The notes beneath the pieces are model-generated. The model worked only from the letters and a program-made list of their open reading frames with translations. It had not been told where the DNA came from and searched no databases. DNA of 64,000 bases from Bacteroidales bacterium (GTDB lineage Bacteria; Bacteroidota; Bacteroidia; Bacteroidales; UBA10428), in NCBI GenBank assembly GCA_016935355.1, contig JAFGRC010000104.1:22874-86873 (forward strand), in the 5' to 3' direction. This document shows, piece by piece, positions 10,437 to 32,771 of the stretch. Within the stretch, counting starts at the first letter, position 1. Every line of letters begins with the position of its first letter. The position numbers were made by a program, and so were the translations under genes.

Positions 10437-11351
10437 TCAGGCTTCCTGCTCTTTCTTGTGCATTGCCCTGCAAAAGAGGGTGAGTTTGTATATGCTGAAG
10501 AGGAAAAGACTTGGGTTACTGCCTGACATGTTACGGTACAAAGCATTGGAAAAACCGTCAAAAAGCGTCAGGAATATTTTGGCCAGTCCGTATTTCTTCA
10601 GGAAAGCGTAATATCTCAAAATCCTTATGTCATCATAGTATTTTCTGTCAATTTTACCGGACTTGACCAGTTTTACCAGATTCTCAATACTTTCACCCAT
10701 CTTGATCAAAAACTCCCCCGTGGGTTCAACCCCGATATGGATCAATGGATTTTGAATATGATAAATGGGAATGTTTCTTTTTTTCAGTTCCAGACCAAAC
10801 AATGTATCTTCATGACCATATTTTACAATGCTTTCATCAAATTGAATCTGTAACAAAATTGACTTCGAGATCATGAAATTGTTTGTCATAAAAGACCTGT
10901 ACGGGTGTTTAGCCCTTATATGGGCGGGAATCTGTTCATGGCTTAATCCATAGAGCCATCTCAGAAAATATTCAGGTTCCTCAGGTTGCTCAGACCTGTA
11001 TGCCCTTCCGCCGCATACGACAGCTTCATGGCCGACATAGGGTAAATATCTGTCAATATATTGATCATCCGGCACTTCAGAATCACAATCCATGAAAAGA
11101 AGGGAGGAATATTGTGCCATGTCGGCAAGCCTGTTCCGGATACGGGCCCTTCCGATGTTCTTTTCCAGTTCAATGAAGCGGACATGCTTCAACTTGCGCA
11201 CACCTTTGTTCTGGTCGCGCAGCAATTCCGATGAGCAATCATCCAGTACAATAATTTCATACGAAACCGAAGCTTTTAGCGCCTGTTTGTGAAGCTCAGT
11301 AACCAGTGATACGATATTGAAATTATAAACGGGAATAAGAATCGACAGCAT
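10437..11351 (-). CDS. family 2 glycosyltransferase
   Basis: 304-aa ORF. LSILIPVYNFN...IIVLDDCS...FMDCDS are the GT2 motifs. It is the last gene of the co-directional string that starts at the B12 riboswitch. Confidence 0.8.
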   Translation of the reverse strand: MLSILIPVYNFNIVSLVTELHKQALKASVSYEIIVLDDCSSELLRDQNKGVRKLKHVRFIELEKNIGRARIRNRLADMAQYSSLLFMDCDSEVPDDQYIDRYLPYVGHEAVVCGGRAYRSEQPEEPEYFLRWLYGLSHEQIPAHIRAKHPYRSFMTNNFMISKSILLQIQFDESIVKYGHEDTLFGLELKKRNIPIYHIQNPLIHIGVEPTGEFLIKMGESIENLVKLVKSGKIDRKYYDDIRILRYYAFLKKYGLAKIFLTLFDGFSNALYRNMSGSNPSLFLFSIYKLTLFCRAMHKKEQEA

Positions 11352-11387
11352 TGTTTATTTGGTTTCCGTCAACAATAGCAATCAAAG

Positions 11388-11597
11388 TTAATCCTTTCTT
11401 TCCGAATCCCTCATAAAAACGGTATATATGAACAGAATTACGGCTGAAGCCGCAAATATGACGATCAGGGATAAAATTGCATTCATCATAACATTTCTCA
11501 AATCAATGATATCCCAGATACCCAGTATTGCAACAATGGTAAATACCAGAACCAGTGCAATCAAGATATATGACACTATTGTTTTCATTGTTTCCAT
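11388..11597 (-). CDS. small two-helix membrane protein (hypothetical)
   Basis: 69-aa ORF with two clear hydrophobic helices. It starts 6 nt after the ABC ATPase stop on the same strand. Confidence 0.45.
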   Translation of the reverse strand: METMKTIVSYILIALVLVFTIVAILGIWDIIDLRNVMMNAILSLIVIFAASAVILFIYTVFMRDSERKD

Positions 11598-11603
11598 CAG
11601 TTT

Positions 11604-12629
11604 TTATTTACAATTATACTTTAAATAATATGTCAGTTCATATATTGATTTAAATTTCCGGGTTTCAATTCCTGCCTCTAAAATCCAGATGATTCCACTG
11701 CCTTCTGAAACAACTTCAACCCTGATCATATCCTCATTTGTGCCATTCACCTGAAAACCTATTCTTTTTAGAGCTTTCTCCGTATAAAATACATATTCTT
11801 CCGGCCCCTGCAGTCCGATTGTTTTATGGATTTCCTTTTTTAATCTGAAACCATCCGACTGCTGATCATATTCAAGAGGCGAATTCAGGAACAATTTATG
11901 AAATTGTTGTCTAAAAAGCAAGTCTTCCGGTGCTCCTTCAGCAATACCTTCATTCAGCATCAGCCATATGATATCTGCTTCATGCATGGCAATATCGAGA
12001 TCGTGTGTTGAAAACAGAATCGTTTTCCCTGCCTGACCTGAAAGTTCATTCATCAGTCTGAGTATTTCATACCGGGATGGCAGATCGAGAAATGCAGTAG
12101 GTTCATCCATTATGATTACGGGTGTATCCTGTGCAAGTGCTCTGGCGATCATGACCTTTTGTCTTTCACCATCACTGAGCTGATATATAAATTTTGCAGT
12201 CAGATGCCTGATTTGTGCCATATCAATGGCAGACTGTATACTTGAGTGGTCAAAATGTTCCAGCTTTCCCAGCCAGTTTGTATACGGAGATCTTCCCAGG
12301 GAAACCATCTCATATACCTGCAGATTTTGTACACCGACAATTTCAGTTGATACAAAGCTTATGATTTTAGCCAGTTCCGCTCTGTTATAACTGAAGTCAT
12401 CCTTTCCCAGCAAGAGTATATTTCCTCCCACAGGATTTTGCAGCCTTGTTATGGTACGCAACAAGGAACTTTTGCCAATTCCGTTCCGGCCAATCAACGC
12501 AATCAGGTCACCTGAATGGATGCTCAGGTTTATGGGACCATAGGTAAATGCATTTTGTACACCCCGGGTCCGGTACCCGATCATCAGGTCTTTGAGATCA
12601 ATGATAATATTCTGTTTCTGATGGTCCAT
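11604..12629 (-). CDS. btuD: ABC transporter ATP-binding protein (FecE/BtuD type) with a ~85-aa C-terminal extension
   Basis: 341-aa ORF with Walker A GRNGIGKSS, signature LSDGERQ and Walker B IIMDEPT. The symbol is given from riboswitch-locus context only. Confidence 0.85.
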   Translation of the reverse strand: MDHQKQNIIIDLKDLMIGYRTRGVQNAFTYGPINLSIHSGDLIALIGRNGIGKSSLLRTITRLQNPVGGNILLLGKDDFSYNRAELAKIISFVSTEIVGVQNLQVYEMVSLGRSPYTNWLGKLEHFDHSSIQSAIDMAQIRHLTAKFIYQLSDGERQKVMIARALAQDTPVIIMDEPTAFLDLPSRYEILRLMNELSGQAGKTILFSTHDLDIAMHEADIIWLMLNEGIAEGAPEDLLFRQQFHKLFLNSPLEYDQQSDGFRLKKEIHKTIGLQGPEEYVFYTEKALKRIGFQVNGTNEDMIRVEVVSEGSGIIWILEAGIETRKFKSIYELTYYLKYNCK

Positions 12630-12647
12630 TTCATATTGGTCTGATGC

Positions 12648-13709
12648 TCAAGATACACTGACCAGTCTCTGGTTTTTGACAATGATCCATATCACTATGG
12701 GAATACCCAGCAGTGCAGTAACTGCATTCACAGGAAGGTGGGTGTCCTGTGGCGGCATTTGCGAAATCAGATCACTGATGAGCAACATGATTGCACCCAG
12801 TATGATACAGCCTGGAAAAAGTACTTTATGATCAGCACTCCGGAACAAAAGCCTTGCCAGATGAGGGATAGCAATCCCAACAAATCCTATCGGTCCGCAA
12901 AATGCGGTTACGCTGCCTGTCAGGATACTGGTCGACAAAAAGATCAGGATCCTTGATGATTTCAGGTTCAATCCCACACTCCGGGCATATGTCTCACCGG
13001 TCAGCAATACATTCATGCGTTTTAAGGAAAGTACTGAAACCGCAAATCCTGCGGCAATGCTGATCAGCAATACGTTGAGCTGCATTCCTGTCAGGCTGCC
13101 GAAGTTTCCCATGGTCCATATGACATAGGTCTTCAGCATGGTTTGCTCGCTGAAATACTGTAAAATGCTTACAACAGCTGATACTGCACTTCCGAAAAGT
13201 ATTCCGAGGATCAGTATGGTCATGATATCACGCACGCGCAATGAGACCGCCATCACAAGTAACAATACTACAGCTGAGCCGGTCCATGCAGCCACGATTT
13301 GAATCCAGCCGCTGATGTAAAGCATCTCACCACCGGAAAAGAATCTGTCGAATCCGAGAACTACCAGCGCAACGCCCAGACCGGCACCGGAACTGATCCC
13401 GAGCACGTCGGGTCCGGCAAGCGGGTTCCGGAATATAGTCTGCATCTGCAATCCGCTTACAGCAAGCGCAGAACCTGCAATCATTGCTGTAAGAGCTTTG
13501 GGGATCCTGAAATCAAACAAAACCTGTTTCCAGATCGGGTCAACAGATCCAGGATAAAAAAGTGTGACGAAAACCTGTTTGAACGGAATCTTTACCGGAC
13601 CTGTAATCAGGTCGAGCGCAAACAGGAAAAACGCAACAGCCAGCAGCAGAAAAATCAGGAATGATTTGTGGATGCCTGTGTCGTGATGAATCGGTTTCAT
13701 GCTGTCCAT
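12648..13709 (-). CDS. btuC: FecCD/BtuC-family ABC permease
   Basis: 353-aa polytopic ORF with the typical FecCD pattern (LAGPDVLGISSGAGLG ... GPIGFVGIAIPHLAR). Confidence 0.9.
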   Translation of the reverse strand: MDSMKPIHHDTGIHKSFLIFLLLAVAFFLFALDLITGPVKIPFKQVFVTLFYPGSVDPIWKQVLFDFRIPKALTAMIAGSALAVSGLQMQTIFRNPLAGPDVLGISSGAGLGVALVVLGFDRFFSGGEMLYISGWIQIVAAWTGSAVVLLLVMAVSLRVRDIMTILILGILFGSAVSAVVSILQYFSEQTMLKTYVIWTMGNFGSLTGMQLNVLLISIAAGFAVSVLSLKRMNVLLTGETYARSVGLNLKSSRILIFLSTSILTGSVTAFCGPIGFVGIAIPHLARLLFRSADHKVLFPGCIILGAIMLLISDLISQMPPQDTHLPVNAVTALLGIPIVIWIIVKNQRLVSVS

Positions 13710-13716
13710 TCGCGGT

Positions 13717-14865
13717 CTACTGCAGTTTCTGGTAATACTTTAACTCATGTGAAGGTAACAATTGTGGGTGTAAAATGGATATAAGATCTGCAAGAATAAT
13801 ATGAGGTTCCACAACACCTGATTCAAAATAGTCATTTCCGCCGGCATCGTTCAGCAACCTGTTATTGTTATAAATCGCATTTCCTGTAAAAGCGGGCAGG
13901 TTTTTGAACCGCTCATCAGAGCTGATAATTTCAGCCTTTGAACGTGCATCTCCGGTATTTAGCCAGAATTCAGCCGTCAGTGCATTCTGGTATACTTTTT
14001 CAAGCTCAACGGGTTTACTGTCCTTATAATCCAGGGTTTTCCATACATAATTACCTCCTGCATCCGCGACAAGTTTAGCAACATAACTCTCTCCGCCTGA
14101 AACATACCAGGTGCCCCTCCACGGTAATCCCAGAATTACTTCAGGTTTGAGGCTTACTTGTGATGCAAGCTCCGCAAGTCTGTTGTATTCATGCGCAACC
14201 GAATCAAAGCGGACATCCGCTTCCGTTCCCATACCATAAAATGCTGCAAAGAACTTGATCCATTCCATTTTAGCCAACGGATGCTGTTCGAGATATTCCG
14301 CAACAAGCACCACCGGTATATTCAGTTCATTCAGTTTGTTTATGATCCTGGTGACCGAACCTGTTACTCCATATGCAAAGACGATATCAGGATCGAGCTG
14401 CAGCAACAACTCATAATTTATATTCTCATCATACCCCACATCTGATATTTCATGATCTGCAATCCTTTCCCTCAAATGCCGGCTCACAATAAAGTCCTTT
14501 CCGGATATGCCGATGATGCTTTCTGTCATTCCCAGATCATCAATAAATCCGATGTGTGTAGTTGAAAGACAAACAACGCGTCTTACAGGAACCTTTATGA
14601 GGCTTTCCCTGTTACTGCTTATGACCGATGATTCAACCGAACTGGTTAAAACGTAGGAATATGTCGTCTGCTGTGCATTCTGCCAGGGATTGGTCACATT
14701 GATCACCACCCGGTCCCCATGCTCTTCAAGGACAAAGCCGCTTGCATATTTGATCCGCCCGGAGGATGCACCGCGACTGGTATTTGCTTTTGCTGTTTCA
14801 GATTTCCTGCCATTACAGCCTGATAAGATAAAAAATATGACCAGGCTCATGTACCAGCACCTCAT
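13717..14865 (-). CDS. btuF: periplasmic-binding (BtuF/FhuD class) ABC substrate-binding lipoprotein
   Basis: 382-aa ORF with lipoprotein signal MSLVIFFILSGC. The body (RVVCLSTTHIGFIDDLG...PDIVF...) fits class III SBPs. The ATG at 14865 overlaps the upstream stop (ATGA). The alternative ATG at 14850 leaves an 11-nt gap. Confidence 0.85.
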   Translation of the reverse strand: MRCWYMSLVIFFILSGCNGRKSETAKANTSRGASSGRIKYASGFVLEEHGDRVVINVTNPWQNAQQTTYSYVLTSSVESSVISSNRESLIKVPVRRVVCLSTTHIGFIDDLGMTESIIGISGKDFIVSRHLRERIADHEISDVGYDENINYELLLQLDPDIVFAYGVTGSVTRIINKLNELNIPVVLVAEYLEQHPLAKMEWIKFFAAFYGMGTEADVRFDSVAHEYNRLAELASQVSLKPEVILGLPWRGTWYVSGGESYVAKLVADAGGNYVWKTLDYKDSKPVELEKVYQNALTAEFWLNTGDARSKAEIISSDERFKNLPAFTGNAIYNNNRLLNDAGGNDYFESGVVEPHIILADLISILHPQLLPSHELKYYQKLQ

Positions 14866-17777
14866 TGCATTACAATTTCTTTTAATTGTTCACCTTCACG
14901 TTGTTTGATCTGTGAATAAAAATACATCCCTGTAATTGGTTTGCCATTCACAGAATATTGCTCACCGCCAAAGGTAAGAAATCTGATTTTTCTGAATTCA
15001 TTTACGACATCATTTCTTATAACAATATAGCGCAAGGTTTCTTTGTATTCTTCACGGTAAATTTCCAGTGTAATTCCATCCGGGTAATTTTTCCTGAGTT
15101 CTTCAAAATAATTGTCTTTTTCCAGTTCGGATGAAAAATCGAGTTTGTCCGGTTCTGTTTTAACCAATGCAGGTGACTGTGCTTCAGTACCGGAGGACTG
15201 CAACCGTGATGATGCTGTTAGAATGCGGTCAATTCCGGCTATCTGTTCTTTTGCATACGCATCACCGGGAATGATCTGAAGGGCTAGATTATAACTGTTT
15301 CTGGCATCCTGATATGCCTTCTTGTTGTACAAATTGTTGGCTGTGTTGATGGTAGCAGCATAGGCATCAGCTCTTTTAGCAGCTTCAGCCTGTTCCTTTT
15401 CCCGTGCCTGTATCAATTCCTCCACATCCTCAAGTCTTTCCCTGGCATAGGTTTCTTCCGGTTTTATGGAAATTGCCCTGACATATTCCTCACGTGAACT
15501 GGCATACTCCTTTGCTTCATAATATTTACCAGCATAGGTCAGAGCCGTTTGATATGCATTTTCCACTGCCTGTCTCTCCTGCAGCAATTGATCCTGTTCC
15601 GCGATGATCCGGTTTATTTCCTCTATTTTCTGACGTGGGTATGGTTCAGCTGGAATGAACCGCAAAGCGCCTTCATAAGCCAGCTTTGCACCGAAGTAGT
15701 CTTTCTCTTCAAACATATAGTCGCCCCTCGTTACGGCCTCATCAAATTTATGCTTCTTTTCCCTTTCGGCGATCAGACGTTCGGCTTCAGAGGAGACCAC
15801 CTGTTCAATTTCATGCAATTTCTGTGTTGCCGAAACATCATCAGGCCGGATGGCAAGTGCCTGCCGGAAAGCGGTACCGGCTTCCTCATAGTTTTTTTGT
15901 GTAAGCGCTTCAACACCTGCTGTCATTGCTGCTGAATATGCCAGCTTCTGCTCCAGCTGCCTTGCAGCTTTCTCAGCCAGCAGAATTTCTTCAATCTGTT
16001 TCAGCATTTTTTGCGCATATGCATCTCCGGATTTTATCTGCATGGCTTTCTGATACTGTTTCCGGGCACCATCGAATTCTTTTCCTTCCAGATGCTGATC
16101 AGCAGCTGCAATGGCATCTTTGTACTGCTCATCCTGAAGTTGCCTTATTTGCTGATTGTTTACCTGTTCTGCAATAAGGAAATCCGTTTCAGTAAGCTTA
16201 TTCAACGCGTATGGATCATCCGGTTTGTATTCCAGGGCTTTTTGAAGTGAAATCCTGGCCTGTTCATAATTTTTTTGTGACAATGCAGCATTTGCAGCGG
16301 TGATAGCAGTTTTATATTCCTCTTCCAAAGCATTCAGCCGGGCAGCTTGTTCTGCAATCACGGTATTTTCAATAGCATTGATCCTTTGCCTCGGGAATGA
16401 TTCTGAAGGTTTCACTTCAAGAGCTTTTGCATAGGCAGCTTTTGCTCCTTCATAGTCTTTCGCCTGAAAAAACTTATCCGCCTCGGTAAGAACCGACTGA
16501 TATTCTTTCTCCAGTGCAGTCTTTTTCGCATTTTCCTCAGCACGGGCGTGAGCTTCAATAGTTCTGTCAATTTCGGTCATTTTTGTCTTTGGATAAGCTT
16601 CCGCAGGCTTGATGGTCAGTGCATAAGCATACTTCTCTTTTGCTGCATTATATTGCCCGTTTTTCGTCAGTGCTTCTGCTTCAGCAATTGCACTCCTGTA
16701 TGCACCATCAGTTTCCTTTATTCTTGCTTCTTCAGCCGCTTTCTTTTCCAGTATTTCATGAATTTCTTCAAGTCTCATTTTCGGCAAGACTTCTGAAGGT
16801 TTAATGTCAGCCGCAGTCTGATAATACTCCTGTGCCATCCCATAATCCATCTTTGTATAAGCCGTGCCTGCTTTTGCCAGAGCCAGGTTATAGGCATCTT
16901 CCCTGGCACGCTGTTCTTTGAACTCAGTCTGTTGCCTGGAATAAGCTTCCTGAGCTTCTGTGATTTTTTGTTTCGGGTAGGCCTCCCCGGGTTTCATGGC
17001 AGATGCTTCCTTATACCTGGCAAGTGCTTCACTGAAATTTTGTTTTTCAAATAAGGCATCAGCCTGAGCAATCGCATGATCAAACGCTTCCCCGGTTTTC
17101 CTTTCGTTTGCGATCAGTGCTTCAATCTCTGCGATACGCCTTCCCGGTACTTTTTCATCCGGATAAATTTCCAGCGCAGCCTTATATCCTGAAATTGCTT
17201 CCTGATAATTCTTCCGGACATAAGACTGATCGGCATTTCTTAAGGCAGCATCATACTTGTCCAGCATGCAGGTTTCATAATCCATCAGAACATTTTCAAT
17301 TTCAGGTCTCATCCTCGACACATATTCCTTATTGGACACAAATTCCCGTCTTCTGGTATCAAATTCCACAATATCCACAGGTTCATCCAGAATGCTGTAA
17401 TCTACACCATCGCAAAATTTAACGAGCCCAATTGAAAACTCATTTGTCCATATCCCTTTTTCTTCATCCGGCATAGTGGTGTTGAAACTGATCCTTTTAC
17501 TCACCAGCCCTTCTTTCGATATCTCAATGGTATATTGCCTGTTCACTTCAAGCCTGAAAGAAAAAGTCCCGTTTGCACCGGTCCTGACAGAACTCACACG
17601 GACATTTCCTTCATATAGGGTTGCGGTTGCGCCCGGAAGTGCTTCCATGTCAAGTTCAGATATACCCCGCACATTAAGGTAGGTGGAGGATGAACCATCC
17701 TGAGCATTTACGTTCATGAACACCAGCGTTAAAAGGAGCAACAATGCAGTCCTGTATTTCAACATTGTGAATAACAT
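14862..17777 (-). CDS. secreted repeat protein: CarboxypepD_reg-like N-domain, 11 TPR-like/coiled-coil repeats, ~110-aa C-terminal domain
   Basis: The track ORF runs to 17876, but the signal peptide (MLKYRTALLLLLTLVFMNVNAQ) begins at the ATG at 17765 or 17777. Residues ~224-893 contain 11 units, each 57-66 aa for the four spacings I counted, with the pattern Y..A...Y..AL.[IV]KP.E.YP...I.EI. Confidence 0.75.
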   Translation of the reverse strand: MLFTMLKYRTALLLLLTLVFMNVNAQDGSSSTYLNVRGISELDMEALPGATATLYEGNVRVSSVRTGANGTFSFRLEVNRQYTIEISKEGLVSKRISFNTTMPDEEKGIWTNEFSIGLVKFCDGVDYSILDEPVDIVEFDTRRREFVSNKEYVSRMRPEIENVLMDYETCMLDKYDAALRNADQSYVRKNYQEAISGYKAALEIYPDEKVPGRRIAEIEALIANERKTGEAFDHAIAQADALFEKQNFSEALARYKEASAMKPGEAYPKQKITEAQEAYSRQQTEFKEQRAREDAYNLALAKAGTAYTKMDYGMAQEYYQTAADIKPSEVLPKMRLEEIHEILEKKAAEEARIKETDGAYRSAIAEAEALTKNGQYNAAKEKYAYALTIKPAEAYPKTKMTEIDRTIEAHARAEENAKKTALEKEYQSVLTEADKFFQAKDYEGAKAAYAKALEVKPSESFPRQRINAIENTVIAEQAARLNALEEEYKTAITAANAALSQKNYEQARISLQKALEYKPDDPYALNKLTETDFLIAEQVNNQQIRQLQDEQYKDAIAAADQHLEGKEFDGARKQYQKAMQIKSGDAYAQKMLKQIEEILLAEKAARQLEQKLAYSAAMTAGVEALTQKNYEEAGTAFRQALAIRPDDVSATQKLHEIEQVVSSEAERLIAEREKKHKFDEAVTRGDYMFEEKDYFGAKLAYEGALRFIPAEPYPRQKIEEINRIIAEQDQLLQERQAVENAYQTALTYAGKYYEAKEYASSREEYVRAISIKPEETYARERLEDVEELIQAREKEQAEAAKRADAYAATINTANNLYNKKAYQDARNSYNLALQIIPGDAYAKEQIAGIDRILTASSRLQSSGTEAQSPALVKTEPDKLDFSSELEKDNYFEELRKNYPDGITLEIYREEYKETLRYIVIRNDVVNEFRKIRFLTFGGEQYSVNGKPITGMYFYSQIKQREGEQLKEIVMQ

Positions 17778-17882
17778 TATGATCTCATTACTATACTTGT
17801 TTTTAACCTCAAATGTTACCAATTTGAGCCTGAAAAATCTGAATTCCCTGATGCCTGAAGTGCAGCATTGCATCATTACCGC

Positions 17883-17926
17883 ATCATCGAATCACCGGAT
17901 CAATGGATCATCGAATCACCGGATCA
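17883..17926. repeat. perfect tandem direct repeat, 2 x 20 nt at 24-nt spacing (ATCATCGAATCACCGGATCA)
   Basis: Copies at 17883-17902 and 17907-17926 are identical. The last 3 nt of copy 2 are the complement of the protease stop codon. The element lies in the spacer before the repeat-protein gene. Confidence 0.9.
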
Positions 17927-20089
17927 CCTGTATACAACAAGCTTCAAACTTGAAGTCCCGTAAGCTCCCGTAACTTTCAGAATATAGATACCGGACGGGA
18001 GATTCCCGGTCTGCAAATGAATCAAAGTCTGATAAGGCGGGAATTCCTGCTGATAGATCAACTGGCCCGATAAATTGTATAATTTCACCTGTACCGGTCC
18101 GGCTGTCATTTCCCTGAATTTAATCCAGCATGCATCCGAGACCGGATTCGGATAAACCAGGATCGCTGCAACAGAATCATCATCCGGATTTGTCACAGGA
18201 TCATGATCATAAACAACGGGCATGATGCTGAAGGAAGAATTATAAGATCCTGAAGTGTAATCATTCAGTGACATCCAGTTTGCTCCGTCGAAAACAAATG
18301 CCGAATTTCCCGGCTGAACCGTACGGTTATCAGCCATCCATACCGCAAATGTATCCTGGGGAATGTCATAAAAAAGTTCATATCCGACATAAAACGTATC
18401 GACAACAGATACAGACGAATCCAGTTCAATCAGGTTGACCTCACCCTTTACGAGATCTGCAAGATGTACATCCTTCTCAAAAACTATTTCTTTGGGTATG
18501 GTGCCTCCCTGCCAGACTTTCATGACCAGATGCCCCGAAACTGAAGCGACATAATTATGGGATATGTTCAACAATATGCCGAGCAGCGTTTTTTTGTCTA
18601 CAGTCCTGTATTGTTCTGCAAACTGCCTGAGATATGAAGAATTATGACCGGACAGGTGACCCCAGAGCAGTCCGTCCTTCTCAGCCACCAGTTGTTCGGT
18701 CTTCATAATGTTGGAAAGCGTGTCCCCGCTCATCCGGAATTCCGCGTAGGGATCATATCCGTCAATAAAACCGTACAAGCGCATGGCCGGATCAAGCCAG
18801 AAGCTCAGGAAATCCCATCCGCTTATCATCTTCTGAAAATAATCGTTGACCGGATTGCTGCATTGGGCCTGACCACCGGTCAGCGTACCCACAATCCTTC
18901 CGTTCTGGTCAAAGAAGGGTCCGCCTGATGAACCCGCTTCTGTGGTACCTGATTCCCAGTGATGGACAAGCCAGTGTGAATTTTCAACGTATTCACTGCT
19001 GAATGTTGCTGTTGTCAGAGGATGATTTTCCAGGGCAATTTTTTTTACATCTCCCTGCGGATGATGTATGGTTACACCTGAAAGCGGCTGATTATCCGTC
19101 ACATCCCATCCTGCGTAATAAGGATGATAATAGAAAGGAACAGGTTCAAGCAATTCCAGCAATACGAAATCGAGACGGTCACCTTTCGCCCGTATGGTCG
19201 ATCCCGAAATGCTCATGCTGCTGTTCCCGTCCGGTCCGTCGCAAAAAGGACTTTCATAATCAAAACAAAAGACCGATGTATTGGCAATGCTTTCCCGGTT
19301 GATGCAATGTGCTGCCGTAATCACAAAATTACGCCCGTTGTCGGAAGTGTTGTTTATAAGTGCCCCCGTGCACCGTTCACCACCATCGTAAACGATGCGA
19401 ACGACGGAATACTTAAGCCGCTGATATCCGGGATCATCATAACAATTGATATCTTCGTTGCAGTCCCCCGACCATCCGTACCATCCGTCCTTTAAAACCT
19501 TCGTTTCCCGGTCACCTGTAAAATCACATCCGATCTGCGCAACGACAAGCTGGCCCGCATGTTCAAGGAATGGCGGAACCTGCACTTCCACGATCAACAT
19601 TTCGCTGAACAGCTGTGCTGTTGCAAGCACACCTGTGGCTTTGTTGTTCAGATCTGTAAAAGCGCCCAGAATATGCTGCTGATCGTAATCATACAGATAG
19701 ACTTTCACGCCCTTGTTCACCCTGTAAGTATTGAAAACAATGTTCATGGCTGAGGCATTGCTGACAAGAAAAGCTGCACGCCAGATTTTTGTCCCTTCCT
19801 GCAGGGTATCCCAAATACCGGATTCATAAATATCAAAATCAACATCCGCCAGAAATCCTGAACCTGCAGGTTTCAGCAGGGGATGAGCCGCTTCGGTAAG
19901 TTCCCCCGATCTTACCTCCGGGGGAATCTCTATCTCATATACCATGAGTGGTTTTGAATCCTTATAGTTCAGCGGAAGGGGTTTCCCGGGCCTTGAAAGC
20001 TGACAGGCAGCAAGCGAACAGATGCACAGGAAACAATTCAATAAAATGCTTCGGCTGAACAGTTCTGGTCTCATAACGGTATCATTCAC
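17924..20089 (-). CDS. T9SS-secreted trypsin-fold (S1 family, lysyl-endopeptidase-like) serine protease
   Basis: 721-aa ORF with a signal peptide and a catalytic triad context of VITAAHC (His), DFVLLEL (Asp) and GSSGGPFF (Ser). The C-terminal ~80 aa (VYPNPVSD...GIYILKV...LKLVVYR) form a type-A Por/T9SS sorting domain. Confidence 0.8.
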   Translation of the reverse strand: MNDTVMRPELFSRSILLNCFLCICSLAACQLSRPGKPLPLNYKDSKPLMVYEIEIPPEVRSGELTEAAHPLLKPAGSGFLADVDFDIYESGIWDTLQEGTKIWRAAFLVSNASAMNIVFNTYRVNKGVKVYLYDYDQQHILGAFTDLNNKATGVLATAQLFSEMLIVEVQVPPFLEHAGQLVVAQIGCDFTGDRETKVLKDGWYGWSGDCNEDINCYDDPGYQRLKYSVVRIVYDGGERCTGALINNTSDNGRNFVITAAHCINRESIANTSVFCFDYESPFCDGPDGNSSMSISGSTIRAKGDRLDFVLLELLEPVPFYYHPYYAGWDVTDNQPLSGVTIHHPQGDVKKIALENHPLTTATFSSEYVENSHWLVHHWESGTTEAGSSGGPFFDQNGRIVGTLTGGQAQCSNPVNDYFQKMISGWDFLSFWLDPAMRLYGFIDGYDPYAEFRMSGDTLSNIMKTEQLVAEKDGLLWGHLSGHNSSYLRQFAEQYRTVDKKTLLGILLNISHNYVASVSGHLVMKVWQGGTIPKEIVFEKDVHLADLVKGEVNLIELDSSVSVVDTFYVGYELFYDIPQDTFAVWMADNRTVQPGNSAFVFDGANWMSLNDYTSGSYNSSFSIMPVVYDHDPVTNPDDDSVAAILVYPNPVSDACWIKFREMTAGPVQVKLYNLSGQLIYQQEFPPYQTLIHLQTGNLPSGIYILKVTGAYGTSSLKLVVYR

Positions 20090-20157
20090 ACCGTGAATTT
20101 ATTGTTTTTACAGGAAAATTGCTGCAAAATGAAAAGGGAAGTGTCAACATCCCGCAT

Positions 20158-21237
20158 TCATGGGACAAAAACCGCTCCACTCGGCATGATACCAACAGTA
20201 TGGAATGCCACCGGATGCATTTCCGCATCATAAATTTTCATAAGGCCATTGCCCGACAAATTTGCTTCAAACAGGTAAATTTCTCCGTTTCCGGGATTAA
20301 CCTCAATTCCATAAAAACCGGATCCCGCTAAAACAGGTTCTTCCACCAGGCCGGGATTCCTGACAGACAGACTGTAGACCCCGTCAGGTCTTAAATAGAA
20401 TAATGTAAGACCGTCATCAGAAATGGCACATTTGGGCGGAGTCATAGAGAAATCACCGGCTTTCCCCACTGTCTCCCGCCAGAGAACAACTCCGGTGACC
20501 GGATCTATCTTATGCAGATATGCATCTGTTTCCCGGATCAGTTCATATGGCGGATCCCAGTTATACAATGCATATCCTTTACAGTATATCCATAGGTTGC
20601 CGTCAGCATCAACTGCCATGTCTACGGGACCATCACTCACTTCAATGGTCTGAACCACATGGTCGGTTGAAACATCAATCACACTGACCGTTGAGTCCAG
20701 TCCCCACCCACCGCTGTTGCATATGTATGCTTTGCCGTTAAGGGCGATCAGGGATTCAGGACCAGATCCCACGGTTATGGAATCAATGACTGACATATCT
20801 TTCAGATCCACGATGAGCACATAACCCTGCATGCTTCCGCTGGTCAGATATCCTTTTTCAGCAGTTACAGGAAGAAAATATCGCGGATATGTCACGATAA
20901 TGGGTTGTGCTGCTGTCTTAAAATCAGAGAGGTTGACAATTTCCACCTTTGCGGAATTGTTGACAACAATAAATCCCGTTGTGTCACCATTCACGGCAAA
21001 GGATTGCACAACGTCACCCAAAGGACGGCCGTTGGCATCATTGAAAATATTATGGACCAATGTCCCGTCAAAAGGATTGTAATAGCTTACAGATCCGTTA
21101 TTGTTCCCGTAGAAGCCTTCATGAACAATGTAAATCCCCGGACCGTAATCACCACCGTCATTTCTGTTCAGGTTATCCTCACATGACACAAATACACAGA
21201 CCGGCATCAGTATCAAAATATACAGGATGTACTTCAT
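20158..21237 (-). CDS. surface lipoprotein with YncE/DUF5074-like beta-propeller repeats, in the position occupied by BtuG in B12 loci
   Basis: 359-aa ORF with lipoprotein signal (LILMPVCVFVSC). It has repeated beta-strand blades (IYIVHEG..NNGSVSYY, FIVVNNSAKVEIV, GYVLIVD, AYICNSGG, LWIYCKG, IYLFEAN). It starts 29 nt after the TonB-dependent receptor stop. Confidence 0.6.
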   Translation of the reverse strand: MKYILYILILMPVCVFVSCEDNLNRNDGGDYGPGIYIVHEGFYGNNNGSVSYYNPFDGTLVHNIFNDANGRPLGDVVQSFAVNGDTTGFIVVNNSAKVEIVNLSDFKTAAQPIIVTYPRYFLPVTAEKGYLTSGSMQGYVLIVDLKDMSVIDSITVGSGPESLIALNGKAYICNSGGWGLDSTVSVIDVSTDHVVQTIEVSDGPVDMAVDADGNLWIYCKGYALYNWDPPYELIRETDAYLHKIDPVTGVVLWRETVGKAGDFSMTPPKCAISDDGLTLFYLRPDGVYSLSVRNPGLVEEPVLAGSGFYGIEVNPGNGEIYLFEANLSGNGLMKIYDAEMHPVAFHTVGIMPSGAVFVP

Positions 21238-21266
21238 GATATATGAGTTTTTATTGCGGATTGTTA

Positions 21267-23243
21267 TCAGTTAAAATCCAGTGCCACGGTAATTTGAAAA
21301 GTCCTGCCCGGCATTGCATAGGCACGTATTGCTTCATACTGTTTGTTCAGCAGGTTTTCAATTTTAAAATGGATACCTGCACGAATGTTCTTGAATTCCC
21401 TTTCATAACCGCTAAACAGGTCGATCAATCCGTATGCGGGCAACCGGAAATACGGGTCAGCGCGCTCCACTGTTTCCCTTGAACCGGTCAGTGAACCATG
21501 GCAACCGATCGAAATCTCACGGTAACGGATGATCAGATTCATTCTGGCCACATGCCGCGGTATGTAAATAAGCTGGTTGCCCGTCAGTCCCTCACGTTCG
21601 TCATAAGTCTCAGAAATGGTGGCATAATTGCATCCGTAACTGATGTTTCCGGAAACGCTGGCAAATCCTGCAGGAAACAGGAAATTTATAACAGCCTCCG
21701 TCCCCCTGACATGTACCCGCTTATATTCCACAGGAGTTAGTGAATCACGCACGATCCACTGGATCCAATTGTCAATGCCCTGATAATATCCGGTCAGGAC
21801 AGCAGAAAGGTCTGTTCCTTTGTCATCATCATGTAAAATCAGCAATTCAGCAGCCATATCACCACCCCATCCTTTCTCAGGTTTTAAGCCTGTATTGCCG
21901 CCCGGCTTCCAGTATTTTTCGTTTAATGTGGGTTTCCTGAACTTGCTTGAAAAATTCGACCGGAATATAAGCTTTTCCGTGACTTTAACCCGGATTCCCA
22001 GTGAATACTGGAGAACAGGGTCTGTTCCCTCATAGAACTCCTGCCTCACGGATGTATTGATGATCCAGTCAGCAAGTCTGATCTTCAGATTGCCATAAAT
22101 GGCAAATTCATTTTCGATTATATCATCATTGTAATTGTTCGTAACAGCCCTGTTGTGGATGAACGAGCCGCCAGCTCCTGCAGTGATTACCCTTGAAATA
22201 TGATGGCGGTATTCAATGGCGTTCATCATGCTGCCGGTATTCATTTTTGAATTAAGAGAATAATTCTCATCAGTGACATTCAGCTTATCAGTATAATGCA
22301 GGAAATCAGTGAAATATGCGGTCTTTACCAAAAGGGACGAGTTTATAAAGGATCTTCTGTAATTCAGGTATGTCCTGAAGTTCCGGTCCTCCTGCATTGC
22401 ATTGCTTTCCCCATATGATCCCATAAGCGCGGGTATCTCCTTCATCTTATGCTGAAACCATGCACCTGCTTCAAAATAATTTCCGTTCCCGGCATTCAGG
22501 TACAGATTCTGGATCATGCCGCGGGACTTATAGGCGTTGTGCTCTGCCTGTATCTCGGGTGAACCTGCACGGTATGCGTCTACATACGTAAAATCATTGC
22601 GCGATTGATTGTCAATCAATGCCATATGATATTGCAGCCGGTTTCCGCCTGTTTGAAGCGAAAGAAAGTGTCCCCGGGTATGAAAACTGGCCCACGTTGC
22701 GGATGCACTGAACGCGATCCTCTTGTTCCAGTCGGGTTCATTGATGAGTTCAATCAGTCCGCCAAAAGTGCCACTGCCATTCAGTGCCCCGGAAGCACCA
22801 TGTACGATGTCGACCGACTGCATGAAACCAAACGGGATCAGTGATAGGTCGGCCTGTCCCGTTGAAGGCGAATTGATCGGAAAACCGTTCCAGCTGACGG
22901 ATGCATGATTGGAGCCGGTTCCGTGTAAAGAAAGTGAAATCAGGGATCCCGGACTCCCGTAACTTCTTACGAGTGCAGGTGACTCATAGTCAAGCACTGC
23001 GCCCAGGTTTTGTTGTTTGCTTAACGGAAAGGAACTGTTGCCAACCGATATGGTGGTCTGATCTTCTGAAAAAAACTTCGAATTGCTTTCAGTTATGATA
23101 ACTTCGGGTATGTGAACAGGTTCTGATTCCGGAATCTGGCAGACTGCCCCGGGACACATCAGCATTGCAGACAAAGCGGATAATAAGAAGTATGATTTCA
23201 AAGCCAATTCAGTATTGTTTAAACCCGAACAAATCTTTATCAC
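21267..23243 (-). CDS. btuB: TonB-dependent outer-membrane receptor (BtuB-like)
   Basis: 658-aa ORF with a plug domain (VIITES..., SLHGTGSNHASVSWNGFPIN), a 22-strand-type barrel and a C-terminal aromatic residue (ITVALDFN). It lies directly downstream of the cobalamin riboswitch. The track start is GTG at 23243. A TTG at 23201 would give the cleaner signal peptide (M)KSYFLLSALSAMLMCPGAVCQ. Confidence 0.85.
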   Translation of the reverse strand: MIKICSGLNNTELALKSYFLLSALSAMLMCPGAVCQIPESEPVHIPEVIITESNSKFFSEDQTTISVGNSSFPLSKQQNLGAVLDYESPALVRSYGSPGSLISLSLHGTGSNHASVSWNGFPINSPSTGQADLSLIPFGFMQSVDIVHGASGALNGSGTFGGLIELINEPDWNKRIAFSASATWASFHTRGHFLSLQTGGNRLQYHMALIDNQSRNDFTYVDAYRAGSPEIQAEHNAYKSRGMIQNLYLNAGNGNYFEAGAWFQHKMKEIPALMGSYGESNAMQEDRNFRTYLNYRRSFINSSLLVKTAYFTDFLHYTDKLNVTDENYSLNSKMNTGSMMNAIEYRHHISRVITAGAGGSFIHNRAVTNNYNDDIIENEFAIYGNLKIRLADWIINTSVRQEFYEGTDPVLQYSLGIRVKVTEKLIFRSNFSSKFRKPTLNEKYWKPGGNTGLKPEKGWGGDMAAELLILHDDDKGTDLSAVLTGYYQGIDNWIQWIVRDSLTPVEYKRVHVRGTEAVINFLFPAGFASVSGNISYGCNYATISETYDEREGLTGNQLIYIPRHVARMNLIIRYREISIGCHGSLTGSRETVERADPYFRLPAYGLIDLFSGYEREFKNIRAGIHFKIENLLNKQYEAIRAYAMPGRTFQITVALDFN

Positions 23244-23249
23244 GGCAGG

Positions 23250-23430
23250 TCTTCTGACTTACTCCATTCAGTGATGCCTTCCCGTTGCATCATCAGGTTT
23301 AAACCTGAAACATCAACAGTGGCCGGAGACGCACTGAAAAATACGGAGATTACAGCAGCGGGTACTGTTCAGGATTCTCACCTGATTCCCTATTATCCGG
23401 AAGATGAGGGCCCAACTTCCGGAACCATAA
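23250..23430 (-). promoter_or_regulatory. cobalamin (B12) riboswitch
   Basis: The reverse complement reads GGUUCCGGAAG...CUUCCGGAUAAUAGGGAAUCAGGUGAGAAUCCUGAACAGUACCCGCUGCUGUAA...GCCACUG (B12 box; + strand CAGTGGC at 23317-23323)...CGGGAAGGC (+ strand 23276-23284). All conserved core blocks of the RF00174 class are present in the right order. The boundaries are approximate. Confidence 0.85.
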
Positions 23431-23436
23431 TCTGCA

Positions 23437-23452
23437 CAAAGATACAAAAGTA
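23437..23452 (-). promoter_or_regulatory. two tandem TAnnTTTG -7 boxes (TACTTTTG, TATCTTTG) just upstream of the riboswitch
   Basis: The + strand reads CAAAGATA (23437-23444) and CAAAAGTA (23445-23452). The proximal box sits about 7 nt before the first riboswitch helix. Confidence 0.45.
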
Positions 23453-23548: not shown

Positions 23549-24499
23549 ATGCGTTTGATCTTACTGTTACTGATACTGATTCCATATGCAGATCCTGCAG
23601 CCCAGTCATATGAAACAGGGAAGGGAAATGTGACCGGTGCCGATCCTTCCGGGACCACTTTCAACTTCCTGATGTTGTCATTTGATTTTGTCACCAACAG
23701 TGATTTTATGGGCAGACTCAGTGAAACCGTTGATCAACCTGCTTTTTCATCAACATTTTCCTACATCGGAAAATCAGGTATAGACGCGTCCCTGACAGGT
23801 TTTATGATTGGCAATTCGGATGAGTCACTGGAACATTATACATCTGAGGTTGATATCATGCTTGGATACCGTAAGGAATTGTTCGGATCACTGACATTGT
23901 ATCCTGCTTATTCCCATTTCTTTTACAGTAAAAAGTCCAACGACCTGCAAAAAATTTTTACAGACGAGTTGCATCTTGACGCTGATTACACATATAAATT
24001 TTTGAATTTGGGCCTTTCACCGATTGTATACCTGGGAAGACAACGCACATTCACGCTTAATTTCCGGAACTTTTATACCATCAATTTCAGCAATGTCATC
24101 CTCAACAATTCCATTATGAGTATACAACCGGGAGTCGATTTAAATTTCGGGGATTTCGAATACCTGAACCGGTATTATCTCGATGAAATGAAGGAAAATG
24201 AACGTTTTTACGAGTATTTGCTGCTGTCTAAAGCGATCCGTCAATATGCAATGGTTAAAAAGGCACAAAACCCGGAATTAACGGTATATCAGATCCTGGA
24301 CCAGTATCTGAATGAGAAAATCCAGGATACGTTTAAACTCACCTCTGCAGTCTTATACCTGCCGGTAAGTTATCTGGCCGGTAATTTTGGTATTAATACC
24401 GGATTGTATGTTTTTTTGCCAGTTAAACAACCCGATTATCTTTATAACGAAAAGCAGTTCTTTTTCACAGTGGGAATATCATACAATCTGGCATTCTGA
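23549..24499 (+). CDS. hypothetical outer-membrane beta-barrel-like protein
   Basis: 316-aa ORF with a signal peptide (MRLILLLLILIPYADPAAQ), alternating amphipathic strands rich in Y/F/G/S/T, and a terminal aromatic residue (GISYNLAF). I recognise no family. Confidence 0.5.
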   Translation: MRLILLLLILIPYADPAAQSYETGKGNVTGADPSGTTFNFLMLSFDFVTNSDFMGRLSETVDQPAFSSTFSYIGKSGIDASLTGFMIGNSDESLEHYTSEVDIMLGYRKELFGSLTLYPAYSHFFYSKKSNDLQKIFTDELHLDADYTYKFLNLGLSPIVYLGRQRTFTLNFRNFYTINFSNVILNNSIMSIQPGVDLNFGDFEYLNRYYLDEMKENERFYEYLLLSKAIRQYAMVKKAQNPELTVYQILDQYLNEKIQDTFKLTSAVLYLPVSYLAGNFGINTGLYVFLPVKQPDYLYNEKQFFFTVGISYNLAF

Positions 24500-27804: not shown

Positions 27805-28602
27805 CTATTCTGTCAGTGTAAATACAACTGGAATTGTGAACTGCTGTTTAACTGCTCTACCTCCCTGTCTTGCAGGTTGCCATCTTGGTGATGAAAGGAT
27901 CACGCGTCTGGTTTCTCCATCCAGTGTTGGATCAACACCACGCAGAATCACCACATCCACTACCTCACCCTGTGAGTTCACAGCAAATTGTACGGTTACA
28001 CGACCAAAGATATTATTTTCAATTGCAAGAGGCGGATATATGATGTTCTCCTGCACCCAGAGGCGGAAATCATTCAGATCGCCTCCACGGAAGGTTGCCT
28101 GTTCCTCAACAAACACAAAAGCTGGTTCCTCTTCAATGATCACAGATTCTTCTTCCTCAATAACCTCTATGATCTCTTCGGGAACCGGTTCGTTTGTTAC
28201 ACTCTCCCTTACGTCATCCACAATGGCAAGTTGTACTTCCTGCTGCACCGTATCCACAACAACAGGTGCCGTATACCTCACAGTTTGTTCAGCTGCGGAG
28301 GGAGGAGGTGGTGGAGGGGGTGGAGGTGCCAGATCTTCTTCGACATCTATGGTCTCCATTACAACAGATTTTTCCTCTGCCAAAACAATTTCCTCATCCT
28401 CTGCAGTCAAGGCCTTTATAAAAGGTACAGCAACAGCCGATGAAACCGCAATTAATGCAATAATAAAGCCTATGATCAAATACCGTCCAAATCTCTTACG
28501 CAGCAAGTATGAACCATAAGCCTTATTTCTGAATTCAAAAACGATATCATCGAATGTTAAAACCCTTTTCTTTTCCGGTTTATTCTCCATAATATAGATC
28601 AA
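27805..28602 (-). CDS. tonB: energy transducer TonB
   Basis: 265-aa ORF with an N-terminal anchor helix, a Pro-rich spacer (PPPPPPPPP) and a C-terminal TonB domain (GRVTVQFAVNSQGEVVDVVILRG...). Confidence 0.85.
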   Translation of the reverse strand: MIYIMENKPEKKRVLTFDDIVFEFRNKAYGSYLLRKRFGRYLIIGFIIALIAVSSAVAVPFIKALTAEDEEIVLAEEKSVVMETIDVEEDLAPPPPPPPPPSAAEQTVRYTAPVVVDTVQQEVQLAIVDDVRESVTNEPVPEEIIEVIEEEESVIIEEEPAFVFVEEQATFRGGDLNDFRLWVQENIIYPPLAIENNIFGRVTVQFAVNSQGEVVDVVILRGVDPTLDGETRRVILSSPRWQPARQGGRAVKQQFTIPVVFTLTE

Positions 28603-28608
28603 TTAATG

Positions 28609-29277
28609 TTAATTACTACTGGCGGCTCCAGATGATTCAGCAGCAAAAAAGCGCCGTACCATGATCTGTTCGACACTATTGAGATCTACGATCGAATAAC
28701 GTGCAATATTCGTAATTGCCATTTCATCAACAATGTCTACCATGTTTTTATATCTGACACCTTCGGTAGCTTTTATAAGAATTATAGGCCCCACATTATC
28801 ATCTGTCATCATCTGCCTTCTCATCGAGGTAATACTGTCCCTCGGCACTTCAAGTCTTCCCTCAAGAACAGCTTGTTGCATTTCATTTATCTGTGTATAC
28901 AGACTTTTATTGCGCTCCAGCAAGATTCTTCTGATTCCGTTCGCACTGAAATCAGTCTCATACAAGGTTGGCAATGTTTCCCGTGTAGGATCGGCGCGAC
29001 CTGTGTACCACAAGATCCTGTCATTTTCGGTCAGGATTATATGGAATGCCCTGCTCTCAGGTATCTGAGGGGCATTTGCCTCCTGACCTGCTTCCTGTCG
29101 CTCGGGATAAACGATTTCCATAACCTTTGATTTGGTAAAAGCCGATGTAAGCACAAAAAAGGTAATCAATAAACAGGCAAGGTCCACCATCGGAGTCATA
29201 TCGATGTGCGTACTCTGCTTTTTTGCCCGTTTTTTACCTTTATGCTGACTACCGCCGGTTTCTGCTATTTCAGCCAT
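28609..29277 (-). CDS. exbD: ExbD/TolR-family biopolymer transport protein
   Basis: 222-aa ORF with the IDMTPMVDLACLLITFFVL motif and helix. Confidence 0.85.
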   Translation of the reverse strand: MAEIAETGGSQHKGKKRAKKQSTHIDMTPMVDLACLLITFFVLTSAFTKSKVMEIVYPERQEAGQEANAPQIPESRAFHIILTENDRILWYTGRADPTRETLPTLYETDFSANGIRRILLERNKSLYTQINEMQQAVLEGRLEVPRDSITSMRRQMMTDDNVGPIILIKATEGVRYKNMVDIVDEMAITNIARYSIVDLNSVEQIMVRRFFAAESSGAASSN

Positions 29278-29288
29278 AATAATATTTT

Positions 29289-29933
29289 TTAAAGATTTTC
29301 TTCTAATTGTACTTCAGCCGTCTCAAGGTTTGTAATCAAATTGAACCTTCTGACATTGTTATCCTGCAAAACATTAATAACATCCTTAACCCTATCATAA
29401 TCAGCATCTTTATCTCCTCTAATAACGACTGTCAGATTCGGTTCTACAGTACGCGCGGCTCTGATCCAATGAAAAAGCTGATTGGTTGCCAATTTGGTTG
29501 AATCCATTGGTATCCCCTCGTCATAAGCTGCACGTTTCTGCATATCCTCTGCATTGATCCAGTTTTTCAGATTTTGAACGGGCAGGGAGAATGATTCCAG
29601 CATTTCAAACTGTTCAATCTCTTCCCGGGTAAATTCAATTTCATAAAAATCTCCGATCTCTCTCAAGAGATGCGCTCTCAGGTGCAGGGATGTGTCCATC
29701 CCTCCGTTATCCATATTGAAAAATACCATATTCTCTGCATTGATGGAAAGCGTCATCACTCTACCTTCAGGGGCTGGAGTTTCTGAAATCGATCCGGGCG
29801 TATCCACGGTCACCGATTCCTGTTTTCTGAACTGAGCTGTTAATAATAAAAATGTTAGCAGGAGAAAAAACACGTCCACCATAGGCGTCATATCAATCCT
29901 AGGTGCCGCTTTTCGCATTTTAATTTTAGCCAT
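29289..29933 (-). CDS. exbD: ExbD/TolR-family biopolymer transport protein (second copy)
   Basis: 214-aa ORF with the IDMTPMVDVFFLLLTFLLL motif. Confidence 0.85.
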   Translation of the reverse strand: MAKIKMRKAAPRIDMTPMVDVFFLLLTFLLLTAQFRKQESVTVDTPGSISETPAPEGRVMTLSINAENMVFFNMDNGGMDTSLHLRAHLLREIGDFYEIEFTREEIEQFEMLESFSLPVQNLKNWINAEDMQKRAAYDEGIPMDSTKLATNQLFHWIRAARTVEPNLTVVIRGDKDADYDRVKDVINVLQDNNVRRFNLITNLETAEVQLEENL

Positions 29934-30003
29934 GTTTCTCTCTTTTAATTATTTTCAAAAACCTAATTGTTTCATATGTTTTTATCTCCTCAATAAAATC
30001 ATT

Positions 30004-30810: not shown

Positions 30811-30954
30811 GTTTATTTTAAGTGTATACTAATAATTAATATAATTTTCGGTTACAAAGAAAGTAATTTTTTTAAAATAAAAAGTTTCTAAAAAAAAAAA
30901 ATTAAAATTTAGATCAATAACTACATATTTAAATTTGAACTATTTAAAACAATT

Positions 30955-32757: not shown

Positions 32758-32771
32758 TTTTATTGATTTAA

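Follow-up and report, generated by a model that had tools for sequence, protein, structure and literature searches.

A 64-kb stretch of DNA from an uncultured Bacteroidales bacterium (hereafter, the window) carries a vitamin B12 uptake gene string in which a predicted secreted protease and a giant repeat protein are encoded between the outer-membrane and the inner-membrane genes of the transporter, raising the question of whether these two genes belong to the B12 system. The string occupies positions 10437-23452 of the minus strand, on which all features below are located unless indicated otherwise, and consists of a cobalamin riboswitch followed by nine genes in the order btuB, btuG, an S1 protease gene, a tetratricopeptide repeat (TPR) protein gene, btuF, btuC, btuD, the gene of a 69-amino acid (aa) peptide, and a family 2 glycosyltransferase (GT2) gene. 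The initial annotation of this DNA had counted ten open reading frames (ORFs) downstream of the riboswitch, one more than we count. [quoted passage not shown] The reading that we favor, with a probability of roughly 0.55, is that of a Bacteroidota-type B12 (cobamide) uptake locus, in a putatively T9SS-bearing Bacteroidales, whose protease would release protein-bound cobamides.

The relation of this string to B12 is clearest at its 5′ end. The riboswitch predicted in the initial annotation was recovered by cmscan as an RF00174 aptamer (23227..23444) matched over the full length of the model (positions 1-189 of 189), scoring 102.2 bits (E 1.9e-24) where the gathering score is 31.5. It includes the B12 box GCCACUG, sits directly upstream of btuB, and is the sole Rfam match in the window. 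The btuB product (21267..23243), a TonB-dependent B12 receptor with the Pfam Plug and barrel domains, has four PDB matches at E ≤ 1e-10, all of them Bacteroides BtuB chains from BtuB-BtuG complexes (three at E 2e-36, including 8p98_A and 8bmx_C, and one at 1.3e-16); its top NCBIfam match is TonB-B12, under the equivalog cutoff of that family. Two starts are possible for this gene, GTG at 23243, within the 3′ strand of the aptamer P1 stem, or TTG at 23207. The following gene, btuG (20158..21237), encodes a surface beta-propeller B12-binding lipoprotein (DUF5074, 67 bits), which matches the BtuG chains 8p97_B, 8bmx_D, and 8bn0_A over nearly its full length (E 1e-25 to 1e-26, best 1.7e-26) and presents a lipobox Cys19 followed by acidic residues. 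Homology and context show the BtuG surface lipoprotein and the BtuB TonB-dependent transporter to be the predicted outer-membrane capture and import pair.

Homology and context likewise show BtuFCD to be the predicted ATP-binding cassette (ABC) importer from periplasm to cytoplasm, composed of a BtuF-like periplasmic binding protein (13717..14865; Pfam Peripla_BP_2), a BtuC-like permease (12648..13709; FecCD), and a BtuD-like ABC ATPase with a C-terminal extension of about 90 aa (11604..12629; ABC_tran). The top NCBIfam match of the permease is BtuC PRK03784 (198.6 bits), the ATPase scores higher on FecE, and the top match of the binding protein is IsdE; a PDB sequence search with the latter gave no match. 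As all three proteins score under the NCBIfam BtuF, BtuC, and BtuD equivalog cutoffs, their B12 specificity is deduced from context only.

The protease gene (17924..20089) encodes a region of about 200 aa at the N-terminus, a catalytic domain (aa 200-442; Pfam Trypsin_2), a beta-sandwich region of about 200 aa, and a type A C-terminal domain (CTD). In phmmer searches, residues 200-442 match the lysyl endopeptidases 4nsv (Lysobacter LysC) and 1arb (Achromobacter protease I, API) with E-values of about 5e-29, and Foldseek on an AlphaFold2 (AF2) model also points the catalytic domain to LysC. The catalytic triad of API corresponds in the alignment to H256, D302, and S383, which are kept in 82-83 of 83 homologs, while D411, kept in 81 of the 83, aligns with the Asp225 that confers lysine specificity in the S1 pocket of API (numbering according to our own count on the alignment). 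The CTD exceeds the cutoffs of both Por_Secre_tail (47.5 bits versus 27) and TIGR04183 (44.9 bits versus 23), and it has a Foldseek match to the NucA CTD (8glk_D). By sequence, the protein is a predicted LysC/PepK-type lysyl endopeptidase with intact catalytic triad and Lys-specificity Asp. As in PepK, the presence of a T9SS CTD implies that the protease should be secreted and anchored at the cell surface.

Is the position of this gene peculiar to the window? We found more than 1100 full-length homologs of the protease and, scanning one genome per species, at least 594 relatives, of which the best 80 loci (individual loci of relatives carry L-numbers below) were analyzed using tblastn with the window proteins, ORF clustering, and an nhmmer riboswitch model, whose predictions were upheld by cmscan in the seven cases tested (7/7). 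These relatives come from genomes of Bacteroidales, Rikenellaceae, Prolixibacteraceae, Marinilabiliaceae, and further groups. Of the 80 loci, 46 had one or more B12 links. A btuF homolog was found in about 43, in 42 of them downstream on the protease strand, and it lay within two genes after the protease in 38 of the 73 loci having at least 1.5 kb of downstream DNA. On the other side, btuG was upstream of the protease in 27/80 loci and a cobalamin riboswitch was upstream on the same strand in 31/80; among the 56 loci whose flanking DNA was sufficient at either end, 23 had both riboswitch and btuF. The initial annotation had regarded a lack of this synteny in related genomes as fatal to its proposal, and among Bacteroidales and Marinilabiliales the order riboswitch-btuB-btuG-protease-(TPR)-btuFCD does recur in many genomes at the species level. 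Comparative genomics therefore shows the protease gene, placed between btuG and btuF, to be an accessory of B12 uptake loci that is widely conserved.

Several features of this distribution go beyond a common inheritance of gene order. B12-linked loci are found in every major clade of a neighbor-joining tree of the protease, with wholly different outer flanks, and the protease retains its place between btuG and btuF even though BtuB identity drops to 24-35%. Furthermore, the protease accompanies riboswitch-btuB-btuG in loci without FCD (L068, L073) and FCD in loci without btuB and btuG (L036, L048, L054, L061). As it stays with whichever B12 part remains, the linkage exceeds what would be expected from inherited gene order alone. 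A related pattern concerns DUF4465, the BtuH-type B12-binding domain. Proteins combining it with a T9SS CTD are encoded in L013, L055, L058, L071, L072, L075, L025, and L079, often directly after the riboswitch, and adjoin the protease even where btuFCD is absent. Judging from these sequences, B12 binders outside the gut Bacteroides appear to be T9SS cargo rather than lipoproteins.

Other gene arrangements were observed among the relatives. A conserved helical protein of about 93-101 aa with no Pfam family, absent from the window, is encoded between btuF and btuC in L005, L007, L008, L009, L013, L060, L062, and L087. In six Draconibacterium- or Sunxiuqinia-type loci (L029, L031, L032, L035, L047, L074), the protease has no btu neighbors and is divergent from one or two Haem_bd (CxxCH) genes, tandem in 5/6, and, in 5/6, from a tRNA-Thr_ED gene. 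At the level of the window gene itself, two starts are possible, GTG at 20089 or ATG at 20074. Just 5′ of the protease start, at 20089-20110, lies TAAATTCACGGTGTGAA (palindrome TTCAC-N3-GTGAA), and TAATTTCAC is found about 5 nt ahead of the protease ATG in L082 and L086; the alignment with the latter favors GTG 20089 in the window. Directly 3′ of the protease stop (17883-17925), a 19-nt direct repeat, GATCCGGTGATTCGATGAT, is present in two copies 5 nt apart; it is not kept in the nearest relative, L084.

The second unexpected gene (14862..17777, with candidate starts at 17777 or 17765) encodes a TPR protein of about 970 aa, scoring above the Pfam thresholds for TPR_2 (80 bits) and TPR_11 (57 bits). 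It is composed of a conserved N-terminal beta-sandwich (aa ~33-148), 11 repeats of about 64 aa, each formed by a long and a short helix, and, at its C-terminus, an alpha/beta domain of about 80 aa that is likewise conserved; its AF2 model is an elongated all-helical array. Foldseek retrieved generic TPR matches only, none for the terminal domains and no characterized subfamily, and a PDB sequence search gave nothing useful. The gene is limited to the clade of the window, where it is placed between the protease and btuF: 30 protease/TPR homolog pairs have longest contigs of identical length, and the adjacency was checked and upheld in L082, L084, L085, L086, and L087. In L077, the TPR-btuF-btuC genes are on the strand opposite to the protease. 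Specificity for B12 does not extend to the wider TPR family, since a distant homolog of 1681 aa (L083) is located outside a B12 context. In the window, L002, L005, L009, and L082, the TPR stop and the btuF start share bases (ATGA), and a 4-nt overlap is also seen in the gene calls of L084 and L085. The conservation of this overlap suggests translational coupling of the TPR gene to btuF, which implies a shared mRNA, and the TPR protein is best described as a predicted clade-specific addition coupled to btuF. The initial annotation envisaged a scaffold capturing B12 at the cell surface. The protein presents a Sec signal peptide, no lipobox, and no T9SS CTD; lacking a signal for surface export, it is unlikely to have such a role, and its sequence makes a periplasmic function with BtuF and/or the protease more plausible.

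The last genes of the string differ in their association with the rest. The 69-aa peptide (11388..11597), a small, putatively membrane protein that is largely hydrophobic by eye, has no Pfam family, with only weak sub-threshold matches to Tetraspanin and DUF3149. Nevertheless, tblastn recovered it in 15 loci at 48-75% identity, and it is the last gene of the string throughout, coming after btuD or, where btuFCD is absent, after the TPR gene. The GT2 gene (10437..11351; Pfam Glycos_transf_2), included in the B12 string by the initial annotation, is parted from btuD by an opposite-strand thioredoxin-like gene in most relatives, and still adjoins the protease where btuFCD is absent. A TAACTTTG box lies near it at 11383-11390, and 11/24 loci have an own TAnnTTTG box for the GT2. 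This gene is part of a separate conserved block and is probably not in the B12 system.

Whether these genes are expressed together is a different matter. The initial annotation had proposed that the protease and repeat protein are co-regulated with the transporter. The recurrence of the synteny supports this proposal, but a single riboswitch-headed unit of 13 kb is not established by our data. Upstream of the riboswitch, two TAnnTTTG boxes, corresponding to the Bacteroidota -7 promoter element, are present in tandem at 23437..23452 as reported (TATCTTTG at 23437-23444, TACTTTTG at 23445-23452), but only the proximal one is conserved. Across the entire window, the motif shows no enrichment (40 observed versus about 50 expected); in contrast, of 18 related loci whose riboswitch is full-length, 17 have a box 2-7 nt ahead of it, versus about 2% of random 72-nt windows. 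Therefore, the proximal box at 23437-23444 is a conserved -7 promoter element. As shown by homology and context, this box and the riboswitch would control at least btuB-btuG. Folding of the expression platform revealed no stable terminator or sequestering hairpin (z = +0.8). An intrinsic terminator scan placed all terminator-like sites of the minus strand inside genes and found no terminator-like hairpin in any intergenic gap of the string, which, together with the shortness of the gaps, is compatible with read-through. In a scan for sigma-70 promoters and intrinsic terminators, the counts equaled the shuffle expectation, the promoter model being unsuited to Bacteroidota, and these candidates were discarded.

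A second promoter may exist within the string. The motif GGTAAC-N18-GTATA(G), located in non-coding DNA at 17792..17820, about 44 nt upstream of the TPR start, occurs once in the window versus 0.05 expected. The form GGTAAC-N17-18-GTATAG recurs in at least nine genomes that have diverged from one another, upstream of the TPR gene by about 40-50 nt (L002 12134-12161, L003 5485-5512, L082 9948-9975, L084 12232-12260, L085 2751-2779, and also L086; near-exact in L004, L005, and L009), and it is kept even though the N-terminal regions of the TPR proteins there are only about 51-79% identical to that of the window. A coding origin was rejected because of a stop codon in frame in L002. The motif is promoter-like, possibly for an alternative sigma factor, and may resemble the -35/-10 elements of the extracytoplasmic function (ECF) type; we found no description in the literature of a GTAAC-type ECF promoter in Bacteroidetes. 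Insertions point in the same direction, as an opposite-strand oxidoreductase gene lies between btuG and the protease in L082 and L086, and about 6 kb of unrelated genes in L005 and L009. Together with the riboswitch-less loci described below, the internal motif and the insertions on the opposite strand speak against a single obligatory transcript of 13 kb under riboswitch control. Two or more transcription units seem probable, one with riboswitch-btuB-btuG, perhaps including the protease, and another with TPR-btuFCD-peptide from the internal promoter.

Two further observations concern the neighborhood of the riboswitch. Divergent from its promoter, on the plus strand, an ORF of 316 aa with no Pfam family (23549-24499) has the same position in L002, L008, L082, L016, and L017, and abuts the protease directly in L016 and L017. 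About 4.4 kb upstream of the riboswitch (27805-33725, minus strand), a cluster encodes PBP_like_2, a 600-aa TPR protein, ExbB, ExbD, ExbD, and TonB; in L084 and L086, too, this cluster is a neighbor of the B12 locus, and BtuB could be energized by it.

The proposal of cobamide release by the protease must be interpreted cautiously, as a series of observations weighs against it. Neither Pfam nor NCBIfam, nor Foldseek on the AF2 model, detected a B12-binding domain in the protease, the Foldseek matches being limited to LysC, the T9SS CTD, and generic beta-sandwiches in a model of modest quality (mean predicted local distance difference test score of just 65, with the C-lobe of the catalytic domain poorly modeled). 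The survey counts describe the top of the homolog list only and, by automated count, 22 of the 56 well-covered loci have no B12 neighbor, although inspection revealed that this count had missed such neighbors in at least two loci (L009, where extra ORF calls intervene, and L077, with its opposite-strand TPR-btuF-btuC). The protease family also has members outside B12 loci. In a neighborhood survey of the kind suggested in the initial annotation, an S1 protease with CTD does recur beside B12 genes, but the linkage is not obligatory and the TPR gene occurs in a single clade. The protease-TPR-peptide trio is present without any btu gene in L010 and L016, and cmscan found no Rfam riboswitch of any class in seven Prolixibacteraceae-type protease-btuFCD loci lacking btuB and btuG. 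Moreover, given the lack of a terminator in its expression platform, the riboswitch may be limited to controlling the translation of btuB, and the internal motif and opposite-strand insertions leave the B12-dependent expression of the protease and TPR genes unproven. Finally, the proteolytic-release role itself is purely our inference from sequence.

These observations are the basis of the alternative that survives best, although we consider it unlikely: protease, TPR protein, and 69-aa peptide would be a separate module, devoted, for example, to general extracellular proteolysis for peptide nutrition or to T9SS cargo handling, and placed beside the btu genes by inherited gene order. The many family members without btu neighbors, the isolated trio of L010 and L016, the conserved internal promoter-like motif, the insertions parting the protease from riboswitch-btuB-btuG, and the seven riboswitch-less loci all fit this explanation, as does the equal persistence of the GT2 and thioredoxin-like neighbors, which have no obvious B12 role. 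However, simple inheritance would not easily explain why the btuG-btuF position is kept across several families in the face of such divergent BtuB sequences and reshuffled outer flanks, or why the protease stays with the remaining half of the system, be it riboswitch-btuB-btuG (L068, L073) or btuFCD (L036, L048), and beside DUF4465 B12-binding genes in L025, L071, L075, and L079. The overlap of the TPR stop with the btuF start, implying a shared mRNA, also argues against independent modules.

A role within the B12 system could also be directed inwards, with the protease maturing, activating, or turning over the cell's own surface B12 binders (BtuG or DUF4465-CTD proteins) instead of attacking foreign cobamide-binding proteins. 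Indeed, T9SS cargo often needs proteolytic processing, PepK itself requiring processing by Rgp (PMC4674972), and DUF4465-CTD proteins co-occur in some loci. Nevertheless, most protease loci, including the window, have no nearby DUF4465 gene, and BtuG and BtuH of gut Bacteroides function without such a protease (PMC6143338, PMC8941943), making this explanation improbable. Least probable is that the ABC transporter, and hence the protease-TPR-FCD half, imports something else, for instance haem or a siderophore, B12 specificity being confined to btuB-btuG, since the sub-cutoff scores of BtuF, BtuC, and BtuD with their FecE and IsdE preferences, the riboswitch-less protease-FCD loci, and the Haem_bd genes adjoining the protease in Draconibacterium-type loci are countered by the BtuC top match of the permease and by the presence of the same FCD genes after riboswitch-btuB-btuG on one strand in 23 loci, the canonical Bacteroidota B12 layout (PMC8941943).

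Returning to protein-bound cobamides as the favored explanation, the pairing of protease and B12 genes in dozens of related species suggests that B12 may be cut loose from proteins before import. In the proposed mechanism, the protease would be exported by the T9SS and work at or beyond the cell surface, where it would cleave cobamide-holding proteins such as B12 enzymes set free by cell lysis or the binding proteins, for instance of the BtuG/BtuH type, that act as carriers or belong to competitors. BtuG would capture the released cofactor, BtuB would import it, and BtuFCD would carry it into the cytoplasm, while the TPR protein would stay in the periplasm and act there together with BtuF and/or with the protease during its passage. 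By analogy with haptocorrin degradation by the host and with gingipain-driven haem acquisition, we infer that extracellular release of protein-bound cobamides would be the most likely mechanism. A bolder version, which we hold to be less probable than the general reading, is that environmental T9SS-bearing Bacteroidales and Marinilabiliales practice a "cobamide piracy," in which a dedicated Lys-endopeptidase would strip foreign binders, including the femtomolar ones of competitors, so that BtuG-BtuB can capture the cobamides, and, in one clade, a giant periplasmic TPR protein would physically couple this step to BtuF-BtuCD.

Competition for B12 shapes anaerobic microbial communities, and the known Bacteroidota systems depend on the ultra-tight binders BtuG, BtuH, and BtuJ. 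A protease gene conserved in an uptake locus is a concrete and testable candidate for freeing protein-locked cobamides, and cultured strains with the protease beside btuFCD exist, for example Prolixibacter bellariivorans ATCC BAA-1284 (L036) or Mariniphaga. If true, cobamide piracy would be a proteolytic step analogous to gingipain-driven haem acquisition. These loci also draw attention to B12 accessory proteins outside the gut Bacteroides, with T9SS anchoring in place of lipoprotein anchoring, and to an uncharacterized TPR protein family predicted to be translationally coupled to BtuF. Our literature searches, with targeted reading of papers on BtuG, BtuH, and DUF4465 and of reviews from 2026, found no description of a protease, a peptidase, or a TPR protein in B12 loci. 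From its sequence and distribution, the protease is predicted to be an accessory that recurs in the B12 uptake loci of Bacteroidales and Marinilabiliales bearing a T9SS, which we found nowhere described in this literature.

Compared with the cobamide loci of Bacteroides thetaiotaomicron, composed of riboswitch, BtuB, BtuG, accessory BtuH/BtuJ, and BtuFCD, the window displays the same upstream cobalamin riboswitch, BtuB and BtuG homologs that are the top PDB sequence matches of its proteins, and btuFCD within the same string. The insertion of varied accessory genes is also shared (PMC8941943, PMC6143338, PMC13616437), and B12 loci are described as containing heterogeneous accessory genes of unknown function (PMC8941943). 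In contrast, the window has as its accessories a T9SS Lys-endopeptidase, a 69-aa peptide, and a TPR protein of about 970 aa, and those papers mention none of the three. No BtuH/DUF4465 gene is present in the window, and the DUF4465 proteins of its relatives carry T9SS CTDs, not lipoprotein anchors.

The protease shares with LysC (4nsv), API (1arb), and PepK the S1 fold, the catalytic triad, the Lys-specificity Asp, and N- and C-terminal extensions around the catalytic domain, although its identity with LysC is only about 28%, over the catalytic domain only. By description, the closest characterized analog is PepK of Porphyromonas gingivalis, also provided with a T9SS CTD, which is a T9SS-secreted, Lys-specific serine endopeptidase anchored at the surface by anionic lipopolysaccharide (A-LPS) (PMC4674972). 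A B12-locus setting such as that of the window protease is reported for neither LysC nor PepK. Proteolytic access to a bound cofactor has precedents. Host proteases liberate B12 from haptocorrin (PMC6143338). A functional analogy is found in bacteria. For haem uptake, P. gingivalis uses the Lys-gingipain Kgp, the haemophore HmuY, and the TonB-dependent receptor HmuR. Kgp differs in being a cysteine protease encoded outside the hmu operon, and its ligand is haem, not a cobamide. Nevertheless, the logic that we propose would be similar by analogy: a T9SS-secreted Lys-specific protease degrades the carriers, a surface lipoprotein captures the tetrapyrrole, and a TonB-dependent transporter imports it.

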